In this document: piece after piece, positions 5,906 through 30,828 of the stretch
Layout: the number at the start of each line of letters is the position of its first letter
How positions within the stretch are numbered: the first letter of the stretch is position 1
Source: a virus
Lineage: Duplodnaviria; Heunggongvirae; Uroviricota; Caudoviricetes
Direction: 5' to 3' (one strand)
IMG/VR virus record: IMGVR_UViG_2737471834_000007
DNA length: 36,329 bases
Notes under the pieces: generated by a model
What the model was told of the DNA's origin: nothing
Databases searched by the model: none
The model's input: the letters and a program-made list of their open reading frames with translations, nothing else
Position numbers and translations under genes: made by a program

Positions 5906-6508
5906 CATCCCCCTCCGGCCAGCCAACAGGATACGCACGAATATCCGGCAGTGCGGTCAACCCTGCCACTTCTTCTTTCATCCGGCGCTGGCGTTCATGG
6001 ATTTTAAACCCCTGCATCACCATCGCCGCATTCATCGCAGTATCCAGTTGTATCAGCTCTTCCGGCGTCAGAGTGACATCCTGATTATCCGCATCCGTCC
6101 AGAAAAAATGCTCAGGCAACAGCCCGTTTCCTGCCACCGCAACTACCGGTGTCAGTCTGGACTGTGAAGCCTTTCCGGCATCCCAGCGATGACCACTGAA
6201 TTCAAAAACAAAACTGCTGTTCTCCTGGCTGTCACGCCAGCGACTGATTTCACCGTATTTCTGATTTCTGGCCTTTTCCAGTATCTCCTCTGTCACCACA
6301 AACGGCGTGACCTCACCCCAGGCCCCTGATATCAGCCCTGACCAGAGCCTTAACCCGAATTCTGTCGGGTCTGAAGCTCTGGCAGTATAAGGTACATATA
6401 CCCGCTGACTGTCATCAGAACGGTCTGCCATGAACACCTCACAGGTAATGCTGCCGTCTTCATTAAAACGGGCATTGCGCACGTCCGCTTCTGAATTCCT
6501 GGTATCCA

Positions 6509-6509
<1 letters not shown>
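5898..6509 (-). CDS. Putative tail fibre assembly/chaperone protein for fibre 2 (203 aa)
   Basis: Immediately follows fibre gene 2 with a 1-nt TAATG overlap; position and size fit a fibre chaperone; ends in GWPEGDDE. Confidence 0.45.
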
Positions 6510-8077
<1,568 letters not shown>

Positions 8078-25332: not shown

Positions 25333-25824
25333 TTATTTCTTGTTATGCCATCTGACCACACCACCTGCCAGGATAACGGCTTTTTCGATATCCCGTTCAT
25401 AGCGTAAAGGCTGAAACACACCGTCGATGAAGTATTCACTGATTTCTGGCAGGGAAACCGTAAAGCTCCTTGATGTGTTTTTGTGCAGTAAGACTGCATG
25501 CTTTAGTGCATCCTGGGCTTTCTGGAATTTCAGCGCATAGTCAGTCGCGATTTCTTCCAGCTCAGCGATGCGCAGCTTCGCTTTTCCCAGTTCTTTTTCT
25601 GCTTTATCTGCACGTTCAGCCTCGGACCCGGCGAGCTGAAAGTAATGCCACTTTTCTCCTTCGTACAGGTTAACGTAATCCCTGAGTCTGTCCCGTTCGT
25701 CCAGGAGAGCCAGTACCACCGATGGTGTGGTCTTAATACGAAATGCCAGAAGTTTCTTTGGTGTTGCCACTTTTTCTGTTGCCGTTGCTGCGTCACGCAA
25801 CGCCTGATAATCGACTTCGTTCAT
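25333..25824 (-). CDS. Hypothetical coiled-coil protein (163 aa from MNEVDYQ)
   Basis: ATG at 25824 overlaps the upstream stop (ATGA); heptad-like KAEKELGKAKLRIAELEE segment. Confidence 0.5.
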   Translation of the reverse strand: MNEVDYQALRDAATATEKVATPKKLLAFRIKTTPSVVLALLDERDRLRDYVNLYEGEKWHYFQLAGSEAERADKAEKELGKAKLRIAELEEIATDYALKFQKAQDALKHAVLLHKNTSRSFTVSLPEISEYFIDGVFQPLRYERDIEKAVILAGGVVRWHNKK

Positions 25825-26252
25825 TGTGGTGTTCTCCGGTGTTGTGTCGGCCTGGCGAATGAATTGCGTTGTGGTGAAAAGACCATTCCCGCCAGCGCGG
25901 CCTTGCGATTGACGACATTCAGTGTTCTGGCCAGCGCTGCGTTGTGTTTGTGTGCCTGTTCTTCGTGGTACTTCTGCATGATTTTCCCTGCAGGTGTGCA
26001 CGGCTCCGACTCCTCCGGCGAACGGCGGGTACGAACTGAGACAATCCAGCTCTTATGTTCATTTCCCGGCCGTCTGTTGAGTATATCTGTAATGGTGGTT
26101 TTCGTGGTGCGGTCAGGATTGACCACTGTGATTTCCAGTTCATCGCCGGGTTGTGGTCTCGTGGCAATGTTGTTCAGAGTCAGTAATGGCGTGCGCTGGC
26201 GCATCATGTTGTCAAAGCGCTGGCGCTGCATGGTGCAGTAAAAACGGGTCAT
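25821..26252 (-). CDS. Hypothetical protein (143 aa) translationally coupled to the replication gene
   Basis: ATGA overlap with the gpA-like stop at 26249-26252. Confidence 0.5.
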   Translation of the reverse strand: MTRFYCTMQRQRFDNMMRQRTPLLTLNNIATRPQPGDELEITVVNPDRTTKTTITDILNRRPGNEHKSWIVSVRTRRSPEESEPCTPAGKIMQKYHEEQAHKHNAALARTLNVVNRKAALAGMVFSPQRNSFARPTQHRRTPQ

Positions 26253-28786: not shown

Positions 28787-29196
28787 TCCCCGGCAGTTGC
28801 CCGTTGAAACGCGGCACGGTACAGCACAAGAAGGCGCCGGTATTCGTCAATAAAGCCTTCTGCCGTTTTAATTCCTTTCACTGCCACGCTGTGGGTTGTC
28901 ATGTCCAGTACGAGCGCCATTTCTGACGATGACCAGCTGATAACGCTGCTGTCGAGTCCGTTGATGTGGAACAGGCCCAGATTCAGGCTGTGATTCAGGT
29001 CTCTGACGTCAACACGGTAACGGTCATCAACGGTGAAGGAGAAATCACCGGATGTGGCGGCGCTGCTGGCTGCCTGTTTACAGGCGAGGCGGTAATAGTC
29101 GTGCAGATCATTGAGACGGGAAGCGAGGCGTGGATCCACCGCCCACATCCAGTTAAAAAAATCCTGAATATCTGAAAGTCCCTTAACGTTCTTCAT
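28783..29196 (-). CDS. Hypothetical early protein (137 aa)
   Basis: CGGAGG SD; ATGA overlap with the replication gene start. Confidence 0.5.
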   Translation of the reverse strand: MKNVKGLSDIQDFFNWMWAVDPRLASRLNDLHDYYRLACKQAASSAATSGDFSFTVDDRYRVDVRDLNHSLNLGLFHINGLDSSVISWSSSEMALVLDMTTHSVAVKGIKTAEGFIDEYRRLLVLYRAAFQRATAGE

Positions 29197-29264
29197 GTGA
29201 ACCTCCGGTAACAGACGTGCGGAAGCCTCCCGCGCACGGGTGCGGGATGGCTTCAGGATATTGA

Positions 29265-29492
29265 TTAGTGGTGGTATTGCTGGCTGATGAGGTCCTGCAG
29301 CTCCGCGAGATCATCCGCCAGGTAGCTGAAGACTGCCGCGTAATACCCGGCAGCGATACCGCCGTTAAGCCGATGTAATACGTTTGACTGCATGATGAAG
29401 GCGACAGATGCAGCCCGATGGAGTCTGCGGTTGATTTCGGTGCGGATGTGAAGGCGCTCAGCGCGGGCGCGCTGTTGTTTGCGGTTTGCCAT
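29265..29492 (-). CDS. Hypothetical small basic protein (75 aa)
   Basis: GAAGAGG SD upstream of the ATG; Arg-rich N-terminus. Confidence 0.45.
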   Translation of the reverse strand: MANRKQQRARAERLHIRTEINRRLHRAASVAFIMQSNVLHRLNGGIAAGYYAAVFSYLADDLAELQDLISQQYHH

Positions 29493-29780
29493 GGTATGGC
29501 CTCTTCGTTTGTAAGTTTGGGAAACTCACCATCCAGAGGTTCCAAGCTCGGGGTGGCGAGACGTACGGGGTTGGAACTACCGGAAAACGAAGAAACCGGC
29601 CCGACCAGAGTCGGCCCCGTACGCCCCGCCATAATTTGGGTGCGAAAACGGCGTGGCGATACGGTACGCACAAAAAAACCGCTGGCGCGGCTGTGCGCTT
29701 CGTTTGTCGGCGGGGTTCCAATCCCGGCACCCGTTTTATGAGGTGCAGCGGGAATGTAACCCGACAGATTGCGGCATGGC

Positions 29781-29840
29781 AAGCGGTTTTTTTGTGTGTG
29801 CATGATGATCACTCAGTCCGGTAACAGTTCACGGAGCACG
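29781..29840. repeat. Direct repeat copy A (~57-60 bp) at the 3' end of the methyltransferase gene
   Basis: About 85% identical to 30876-30932 by hand alignment (AAGCGGTTTTT..GTGTGTGCATG...ACTCAGTCCGGTA.CAGTTC). Confidence 0.6.
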
Positions 29841-30828
29841 GCGTCAGCTGTTGTTCTGTGGTGTAAGAGGTAAACATCGCGCTGTAAGTTGTATCTCCCG
29901 TCACCGTGCCGCAGTCCGGACAGTAGCCGCCGCCATGGCGACCACAGGCGGCGCACTGTCTCAGGGTGGCGATAACCTCCGGTGCTGGTTTTCGGGTTTT
30001 TGCGCCAACGCTTCGAGGTGCCTGGATGCGGTTCATCCGGTAGCCCTGATAAATGCGCCGGGTTTCCGGTGTGTCGGAGCCGGAAATGGTTATGCTGGTC
30101 ATTCCACCTGTTTCCTGTGAAAGACGGTCAAGCGCTGCTCTCAGGCGAACGTGTTCGTCCTTCGTGAAGGGGTTTTCGTAGGCGGTGAAATTGTCCCGGC
30201 CACTGAATGGCAGGTAAGGGGGATCGCAGTACACGCAAAGCGTACTACCTATGCTGAACAGGTGACTGGCAGTGTTCAGCGTTTTCTGAAAATCGCCATG
30301 AACAAGCAGTGTTCTGGTGCTGTTTGCCTTGTCTGCAAATGCGCGGATTTCCCGTTCAGGGAAGTAGGGAGCCCGGTAGCCACCGAATGGGACATTAAAA
30401 TCCCCTTTTTCATTCACCCGGTACAGGCCATTAAAGCAGTGCCTGTTGAGGTATAAAAACATGGCGGCCAGCCGTAATTCGCGACGGTCGCTTATTCCCG
30501 TGCTCAGGAATGCATGATTCTCTGCATTAAAGGTGTTACGGATAGCGAGATAGTCAGTCCTGTTGTTGTGCTCCAGGAACAGGCCTTTTGCTTCGTTGAT
30601 CAGACTGTCGGTGTTGTCCCGTGCTGCCCGACAGAAATTAATCAGCGCACCATTGGAATCACCCGGGATGTAGCGGCTGTAACTGGTGTTCATGAATACC
30701 GATGCGCCACCCACGAACGGCTCAACCAGGCAGTCAGCTTCTGGCAGGTGCGCCTTCAGTGTGTTCATGATGCGGCTTTTCCCGCCCACCCATTTCAGCG
30801 GTGTGCCGGATAACAGTTCTTTGCTCAT
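29809..30828 (-). CDS. Dam-family N6-adenine DNA methyltransferase (339 aa), orphan
   Basis: AdoMet-binding motif (EPFVGGASVF) N-terminal and catalytic DPPY C-terminal (alpha-class order); Cys-rich C-terminal tail; no restriction endonuclease partner seen. Confidence 0.8.
   Translation of the reverse strand: MSKELLSGTPLKWVGGKSRIMNTLKAHLPEADCLVEPFVGGASVFMNTSYSRYIPGDSNGALINFCRAARDNTDSLINEAKGLFLEHNNRTDYLAIRNTFNAENHAFLSTGISDRRELRLAAMFLYLNRHCFNGLYRVNEKGDFNVPFGGYRAPYFPEREIRAFADKANSTRTLLVHGDFQKTLNTASHLFSIGSTLCVYCDPPYLPFSGRDNFTAYENPFTKDEHVRLRAALDRLSQETGGMTSITISGSDTPETRRIYQGYRMNRIQAPRSVGAKTRKPAPEVIATLRQCAACGRHGGGYCPDCGTVTGDTTYSAMFTSYTTEQQLTPCSVNCYRTE

Follow-up and report, generated by a model that had tools for sequence, protein, structure and literature searches.

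A predicted IsrK-C4 antisense RNA cassette upstream of an epsilon-like gene in the early operon of a P88-like phage

The IMG/VR record IMGVR_UViG_2737471834_000007 (36,329 nucleotides (nt), hereafter the window, meaning the whole stretch analysed) is a complete 36-kb genome of a P2-family phage, whose closest genomes are those of P88-like members of Xuanwuvirus. Between the stop codon of its D12-class Dam methyltransferase gene and the ATG (29492) of a gene for a protein of 75 amino acids (aa) lies a gap (29493-29808). Its minus strand carries members of two curated RNA families, isrK and C4, one after the other. The gap is probably an IsrK-C4 antisense cassette of the type found in P1 immI, in the P4 immunity region and at the isrK locus of Gifsy-1, here placed in the early operon; by analogy with these systems, the RNA pair most likely keeps a small anti-repressor gene off in a P2-like prophage. 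A preceding sequence-only reading had drawn the borders of the gap exactly and had read it as a candidate structured RNA, possibly a small RNA or a leader, which was correct, and the RNAs moreover have their own promoter. What that reading missed is that there are two RNAs, that the functional signal lies in the complementarity between loops and target and not in the local hairpins alone, and that the 75-aa gene is the presumed target.

The whole window was scanned with the Rfam covariance models, a step which the sequence-only reading had recommended, at the gathering cut-offs of 45 bits for RF01695 and 50 bits for RF01394. Exactly two matches were obtained, both above these cut-offs, both within the gap and both on the minus strand. 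RF01394 matched at 29746-29672 (68.1 bits, E 1e-12, model positions 1-77 of 77), delimiting an IsrK-type RNA that comprises the c4-a1b1 motif and a terminator, and RF01695 matched at 29636-29549 (83.2 bits, E 4e-15, model positions 1-87 of 87), delimiting a C4 antisense RNA. C4 starts 35 nt past the end of isrK on the same strand, which is within the approximately 150 nt expected for c4-a1b1 (RF03163). A tRNA and tmRNA scan of the window found none, and the tRNA-like look of the stretch GGTTCCAATCCC was dismissed, as it is the loop (a1) of the second isrK hairpin. The gap is unannotated in the record of phage Shae_phiSM, and among the 49 E. coli matches listed only protein-coding features are annotated and no non-coding RNA. 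The Stx-phage record LC710660 annotates both RNAs. The P88 record carries a hypothetical protein, SF19_gp13, at 6132-6320 on the plus strand, i.e., opposite to C4 (6128-6215); this coding sequence (CDS) is probably spurious.

The predicted structure of C4 matches the layout of its family: a closing stem, a tetraloop hairpin, a large-loop hairpin and then a single-stranded segment. The closing stem (29631-29615 / 29570-29554) has arms of 17 nt that are 88% complementary, and corresponds to the outer of the nested inverted repeats pointed out beforehand (ACGTACGGGG ... CCCCGTACG); the hairpin enclosed by them is the tetraloop hairpin GGCCGAC-UCUG-GUCGGCC (29614-29601). The second hairpin (29600-29579) bears a 12-nt loop (29595-29584). 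Folded alone, C4 reached -47.9 kcal/mol (z = -4.7; 0 of 200 shuffles equally good), and its minimum free energy (MFE) structure was identical to the Rfam consensus. Given this shuffle test and the Rfam E-values, the inverted repeats exceed chance expectation. In a C4 alignment of the window, P88, ST64B, a Stx phage, P4 and P1, 14 of the 27 predicted pairs showed compensatory change. From the C4 ends in the GenBank annotation of P1, mature C4 is predicted at approximately 29630-29552, and by the same comparison it has an acceptor-like stem with a 3' ACC overhang. Regarding the IsrK-type RNA, hairpin 1 (29746-29727), hairpin 2 (29726-29711) and the terminator hairpin (29692-29677, U tract to 29672) were all recovered in the fold, and the terminator scan called the last of these with a 6-bp stem and a T7 run; this is the terminator-like stem with a U7 tract that had been noticed near 29674-29697. 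A further inverted repeat, I6 (29630-29643 / 29727-29740), was set aside as a chance occurrence, because one arm is not conserved in homologues and compensatory changes are absent.

Six short boxes connect the two RNAs with the 75-aa gene. Box a1 (UUGGAAC, 29721-29715) occupies the loop of isrK hairpin 2, and box b1 (AAACGAAG, 29705-29698) lies between that hairpin and the terminator. Within C4, the 12-nt loop of the second hairpin contains segment b' (CUUCGUUU, 29592-29585), and segment a' (GUUCCAA, 29577-29571) forms the single strand between the second hairpin and the closing stem. Downstream of C4 follow box a2 (UUGGAAC, 29545-29539) and box b2 (AAACGAAGAGG, 29510-29500). Both a1 and a2 complement a' (7 bp in the case of a2), and both b1 and b2 complement b'; the b2:b' pairing consists of nine Watson-Crick and two G-U pairs, with a 9-nt core found to be 100% complementary in the repeat search. 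Box b2 covers the Shine-Dalgarno sequence of the 75-aa gene (GAGG, 7 nt before AUG 29492). Cognate loop-target duplexes had a mean energy of -23.5 kcal/mol, compared with -11.2 kcal/mol for non-cognate ones, and the C4 of the window favours its own target (-20.2 kcal/mol) over the next best (-14.0 kcal/mol).

Conservation was assessed in homologous sequences, 64 for the promoter and the box types and 41-42 unique ones in the alignment, depending on the stretch aligned; covariation was counted on 41 distinct ones. All 61 IMG/VR loci coding for a relative of the 75-aa protein have the same region directly upstream, with 82-90% identity, as do the phages Shae_phiSM and P88; the P88-like genomes closest to the window show 85-91% identity across the gap. 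The scaffold is nearly invariant, whereas the six boxes are hypervariable and vary in concert. Regarding the pairing of a'/b' with a2/b2, 89.6% of the cells were paired (shuffle mean 65.9%), 173 cells were changed on both sides (shuffle mean 47.7; 0 of 500 shuffles as high) and the covariation score was 0.57, whereas slid controls did not exceed 0.22. Regarding the pairing of a1/b1 with a'/b', 95.3% of the cells were paired (shuffle mean 66.6%), 174 were changed on both sides (shuffle mean 47.4; 0 of 500 shuffles as high) and the score was 0.67, with slid controls at 0.21 or below. Seven of the nine b1:b' pairs change on both sides, with 98.9% of the cells paired, as do seven of the twelve b2:b' pairs and, taking a1/b1 against the C4 loops together, 11 of 17 pairs. 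The internal helices are 96% paired and essentially invariant, so that the shuffle comparison is not informative for them; the helices of C4 are 100% paired in the 41 homologues.

In the 64 sequences there are 15 types of b' and six types of a' in 23 combinations, the combination of the window being unique in the sample. These combinations reassort independently of the type of the C repressor. This is the pattern expected of an antisense specificity determinant under diversifying selection, as judged from the aligned sequences, and the independence of RNA types from C types is consistent with a separate layer of specificity.

The only promoter-like site within 29150-30000 is a sigma-70-type promoter at 29782-29753 on the minus strand, with the -35 element TTGCCA (29782-29777), an 18-nt spacer and the -10 element TACATT (29758-29753). 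The predicted transcription start, near G29746, coincides with the first base of the isrK model. TTGCCA, the exact 18-nt spacing and TACA[TG]T are kept in 64 of 64 homologous sequences, whereas the sequence of the spacer varies; an operator for C within the spacer was considered and rejected, as spacer type is independent of C type. No LexA box was seen at the promoter by eye. Just upstream of the -35 element lies an A-tract (ACACAAAAAAACCGCUUGC, 29779-29799, minus strand) resembling an UP element, the core of which is present in all aligned homologues.

The presumed target, the 75-aa gene (29492-29265, minus strand), matches the Pfam family PF25738 (Derepression) with 28.6 bits (gathering cut-off 27), and its product shares 32% identity over 50 aa with P4 epsilon (BLASTP, E 3e-8). 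On this marginal but consistent similarity, the protein is regarded as a homologue of the epsilon helper-derepression (anti-repressor) protein of P4. Homology to Icd of P1 was rejected, there being zero similarity and no match to the NCBIfam Icd model. The gene is followed by orf137 (29196-28783, minus strand; phrog_3237), and the start of the gene for the rolling-circle replication initiator gpA (28786-26249, minus strand) overlaps the stop of orf137 by 4 nt. No minus-strand terminator separates the 75-aa gene from orf137 according to the terminator scan. For phage 186, the annotation describes gene A as translationally coupled and subject to polarity, and orf137 and gpA may be affected by polarity from the 75-aa gene. 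Homology of orf137 to orf151 of P4 was rejected, since none was detected.

By analogy with the characterized systems, we infer the expression and processing of the two RNAs, as well as the direction and size of their regulatory effect, as follows. The sigma-70 promoter, which does not track C repressor type, would start transcription near 29746, and most transcripts would end at the isrK terminator, yielding an IsrK-type RNA of approximately 75 nt with a1 and b1, which, like other members of its family, may be a stable small RNA that binds Hfq. Read-through transcripts would carry C4, which, if P1 and P4 are a guide, would be excised, presumably by RNase P as is typical of the C4 family, as a stable RNA of approximately 80 nt with a tRNA-like acceptor end. 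Its a' and b' segments would pair with a2 and b2, occluding the Shine-Dalgarno sequence and leaving the epsilon-like gene untranslated, and polarity could extend the block to orf137 and gpA. The a1 and b1 copies would compete for C4, acting in trans when on the short RNA or in cis when on the precursor, so that the decoy would set the level or threshold of free C4 and create a switch. The box sequences would thereby constitute an RNA-based immunity specificity separate from that of the C repressor. C4 represses Ant synthesis in P1 (PMC8546580), and the c4-a1b1 motif together with the proposal that a1/b1 act as a decoy is found in the supplement of PMC2864571. The IsrK small RNA turns on a downstream anti-repressor and induces Gifsy-1 (PMC4825925), and PMC3632133 uses the name 'IsrK-C4 immunity system of P4'. 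Among the possible effects, a translation block is ranked first because b2 lies on the Shine-Dalgarno sequence with P1-like spacing.

The likeness to the immI region of P1/P7, which RF01695 matches as it does the window, is close. The order of promoter, a1, b1, C4, a2, b2 and small open reading frame (ORF) is that of P1, as are the box lengths of 7 and 8 nt, the position of a2 3 nt past C4 and that of the start codon 10 nt past b2; in both cases the target operon codes for an anti-repressor and specificity resides in the loop and box sequences. The differences are that the first gene here is of the epsilon type and not Icd, that orf137 and gpA follow where P1 has the large Ant1/2, that the upstream element is recognized as a terminated isrK and not as c4-a1b1 alone, that no C1-type operator is evident at the promoter, and that the host is a P2-family myovirus and not a P1-like plasmid prophage.

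P4 shares with the window the order and orientation of isrK (8692-8615) and C4 (8507-8420) upstream of epsilon and a replication gene, the 75-aa protein of the window being the epsilon homologue, and the same logic of a1/a'/a2 and b1/b'/b2. In P4, however, b2 covers the ribosome-binding site of another small ORF, with epsilon approximately 245 nt further on, whereas in the window it lies on the Shine-Dalgarno sequence of the epsilon-like gene itself; the spacer between isrK and C4 is longer in P4 (107 nt) than in the window (35 nt). Whereas P4 is a satellite of 11.6 kb and has a primase-helicase, the window is a helper-type phage, complete at 36 kb, and has gpA. Of the features of a P4-type operon, the window has the tandem of isrK (seqA) and C4 (CI), the epsilon-family gene and the replication gene, but it is no capsid-less satellite dependent on a P2-type helper. 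Because the box sequences of the window and P4 differ, no cross-reaction with P4 is predicted. Gifsy-1 of Salmonella, in turn, has the isrK-C4 tandem directly upstream of the anti-repressor gene anrP, with a self-contained promoter, a leaky terminator and short and long isoforms at the isrK locus, and the pairing in cis of the middle of IsrK with the C4 region is predicted for the window as well. The published 'orf45'/STnc1160 region of Gifsy-1 is a C4 element, given that anrP is immediately preceded by isrK and a member of the C4 family. Gifsy-1 differs in being a lambdoid phage, in that AnrP is of unrelated size and family, in that the published model has IsrK act through translation of orf45, the equivalent of which is not conserved here, and in its output, the antiterminator AntQ, for which the window has no counterpart.

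These comparisons provide two rival accounts of how the cassette acts. One, modelled on P4, is that C4 pairs with a1/b1 and a2/b2 on the nascent RNA and causes premature termination, either Rho-dependent or at an a2 hairpin, so that the epsilon-like gene, orf137 and gpA are left untranscribed in the lysogen and on superinfection and any block of translation is secondary. It draws on the tandem upstream of epsilon and a replication gene in P4 itself, and on the P4 CI RNA, described as a termination factor acting via seqA and seqC in the discussion of PMC4825925 and in PMC3632133. Moreover, the 3' arm of the C4 closing stem can be reused in an alternative hairpin (29560-29525, minus strand) that holds a2 in its loop, folds at -15.8 kcal/mol and is followed by UUU(U); the same arrangement, with other sequences, occurs in a Stx phage, ST64B and P4, and overlapping terminator-like hairpins were remarked on for the C4 family by Weinberg 2010. 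Gene A lies directly downstream, translationally coupled to orf137, with polarity into A known from 186. However, only three or four U follow the a2 hairpin, which the terminator scan did not report, and the placement of b2 exactly on the Shine-Dalgarno sequence, with P1-like spacing, is required by a translational block but not by control of termination. Termination as the chief effect is considered rather unlikely. Somewhat more room is left for the other account, modelled on Gifsy-1, although we would still not expect it to hold: that the read-through RNA is closed and translationally silent through cis pairing of a1/b1 with a'/b', the module being chiefly a trigger of induction. The MFE structure of the 271-nt read-through RNA (-112.3 kcal/mol, z -3.8) does pair a1 with a' and b1 with b' in cis, resembling structure A of the isrK-orf45 RNA; in Gifsy-1, a C4-family element makes up the 'orf45' region immediately before anrP, and when IsrK is overexpressed, translation of anrP rises more than 100-fold and the prophage is induced (PMC4825925). 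Yet the Shine-Dalgarno sequence and b2 remain unpaired in this MFE structure, so that cis folding alone fails to explain silencing. Among the homologues, no small ORF comparable to orf45 is conserved with its stop close to the start of the target. Furthermore, b2:b' pairing is kept in every unique sequence whereas a1 or b1 is lost in three, which points to a2/b2 as the essential interaction.

Two further rivals dispense with the antisense RNA altogether. The gap contains ORFs of 90 aa and 209 aa on the minus strand and of 107 aa and 112 aa on the plus strand, but the earlier statement that it has no credible ORF holds. A protein-coding region, either a small ORF like orf45 or the frame of approximately 148 codons from AUG 29632, could be advocated because 33 of 41 homologues keep this frame open for about 147-150 codons and because the equivalent region of Gifsy-1 was handled as orf45 by its authors. 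The AUG in question is the conserved AUG of C4, and its frame (29183-29632, minus strand) crosses the whole 75-aa gene out of phase. Entropy by codon phase is flat in the gap (0.39/0.38/0.38), lacking the third-position excess of the adjacent 75-aa gene (0.37/0.42/0.72, the signature of a real CDS), and, so measured, the gap lacks the conserved coding signature that had been named as evidence against an RNA. The alignment has 1-2-nt indels at several places, the frame is cut to 57-65 codons in four homologues, and the variable positions compensate each other in base pairs and are radical at the protein level. On the flat entropy and the indels the coding reading was rejected, and it is held to be very improbable. 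Equally little, or slightly less, speaks for the repeats acting as a site in the DNA itself, for example an origin, an array of repressor operators, or a site for partition or packaging, although the inverted repeats are dense and the replication gene follows closely downstream. The internal helices are rich in G-U pairs and hence fit a minus-strand RNA only, as on the other strand, or in a cruciform of the DNA, the same positions would be mismatched as A-C. The Rfam matches are strand-specific, the compensatory variation connects boxes 30-140 nt apart and is of the type expected of RNA-RNA pairing, the origin of the P2 family lies within gene A (P2 annotation), and the spacer type of the promoter does not track C repressor type. 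The replication or partition-type site, which the sequence-only reading had offered as one option, is not supported on these grounds.

Some observations weigh against the antisense cassette as a regulator of an anti-repressor. In three of 42 unique loci (L026, L006 and L030, all from IMG/VR), a1 and/or b1 mismatch the resident C4 loops, so that the decoy is not strictly maintained. The canonical closing stem of C4 is missing from the equilibrium fold of the 271-nt read-through RNA, and the precursor, being paired in cis, may thus act like 'structure A' of Gifsy-1 and not as a simple source of repressor. The epsilon assignment depends on weak homology (just over the Pfam cut-off, and 32% identity over 50 aa). 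Finally, the epsilon-like protein did not co-vary with resident C among the homologues: the correlation of their distances (r = 0.48) is below that with the neighbouring genes (0.61-0.63), and one epsilon cluster spans seven C types, which leaves resident C a putative target of the epsilon-like protein. As to the three mismatched loci, their a2/b2 boxes still match the resident C4, and they resemble recombinants between specificity types or decaying decoys. They suggest that the decoy is dispensable or, alternatively, that mismatched decoys shift the set point.

The module appears to be common, given that a close match to the region is present in 1331 of 5426 complete E. coli genomes. A scan of genome contigs for its spread among species returned two loci only, one in Salmonella enterica and one in a contig labelled Vagococcus sp. 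(L129, NZ_JBQPOM010000071.1). The latter carries a 67%-identical copy of this enterobacterial prophage gene, and its Gram-positive label is probably due to assembly contamination or mislabelling. When Rfam was run on the early regions of P2 and 186, neither C4 nor isrK was found. No description of the module in Xuanwuvirus or P88 was found in a literature search, and the P88 paper reports of P88 only its recovery after mitomycin C. The two RNA families and their arrangement are known; as far as the literature search goes, the phage lineage and the target gene appear to be new for them.

With the antisense cassette as the preferred reading, an unannotated gap becomes a defined regulatory module with testable base-pairing rules. 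It suggests that antisense RNA governs an anti-repressor, and perhaps replication as well, in P88-like P2-family prophages, in contrast to P2 and 186. As the specificity of the RNA is held in two short, fast-evolving loops, the lineage offers a natural panel of predicted orthogonal RNA-target pairs, and the cassette provides a concrete hypothesis for hetero-immunity, induction and the interplay of helper and satellite in P88-like phages. A broader proposal, which we put forward only tentatively, is that P88-like phages have wired an IsrK-C4 cassette of the P4/P1 type onto an operon of an epsilon-type anti-repressor and gpA, gaining a second, RNA-based layer of immunity and commitment with loops under diversifying selection, of which there are at least 23 combinations, the a and b boxes reassorting independently of each other as well as of the C repressor. 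A role in helper-satellite conflict would be conceivable because P4-type satellites hijack P2-type helpers with the same RNA logic and epsilon, and a lineage-specific sequence of 14-21 nt upstream of the promoter might serve as a built-in antiterminator.

The latter suggestion relates to a 21-nt inverted repeat (29666-29686 / 29779-29799; 90% complementary with a perfect core of 14 nt), the arms of which are the A-tract upstream of the -35 element and the 3' half of the isrK terminator with its U tract. It is restricted to the Xuanwuvirus (P88-like) group. The duplex was predicted at -30.3 kcal/mol, compared with -19.2 +/- 3.4 kcal/mol for shuffled sequences (5 of 1000 as low). In equilibrium folds, the probability of the terminator hairpin dropped from 0.85-0.88 to 0.00 when at least 70 nt of upstream RNA were included, whereas control phages, which were noisy, mostly retained the terminator in such folds. 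The upstream arm may serve transcripts of the early promoter as an antiterminator, or it may simply be an UP element. If the former is true, early-operon transcripts would bypass the isrK terminator, whereas promoter-proximal transcripts would stop there.

Regarding the general features of the locus, the gap has a GC content of 57.3%, compared with 50.3% for the window (93rd percentile); the sequence-only reading had called it GC-rich, which is true relative to the window, but the excess is modest, as the flanks have approximately 55%. The early genes are all on the minus strand, from cox (34355) down to gpA, and the genes for the C repressor and the integrase are divergent from them. The window codes for a P2-type capsid, a gpP-like terminase, a portal, tail fibres and a tape measure, as well as for gpA, Cox, C and integrase. 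In this lineage, the cargo varies at the position immediately upstream of the RNA cassette. In the window this position holds the D12-class adenine (Dam) methyltransferase gene (29809-30828, minus strand; PF02086), the product of which has a Cys-rich C-terminal tail, in Shae_phiSM (L001) a gene for a DNA-binding protein (6393-6944), and in P88 (L002) a lipoprotein/protease-like gene (6439-7269); the genomes become homologous again at the A-tract that directly precedes the promoter. The accessory content beside the replication module differs within the lineage as well: 3' of gpA, the window (25333-26252) has an Ead/Ea22-like gene and a phrog_14984 gene, and the same place in P88 (L002, 1222-2497) and in Shae_phiSM is occupied by parM and a partition gene. 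In the tail region, a protein of 522 aa (6509-8077, minus strand) contains collagen triple-helix repeats (PF01391).

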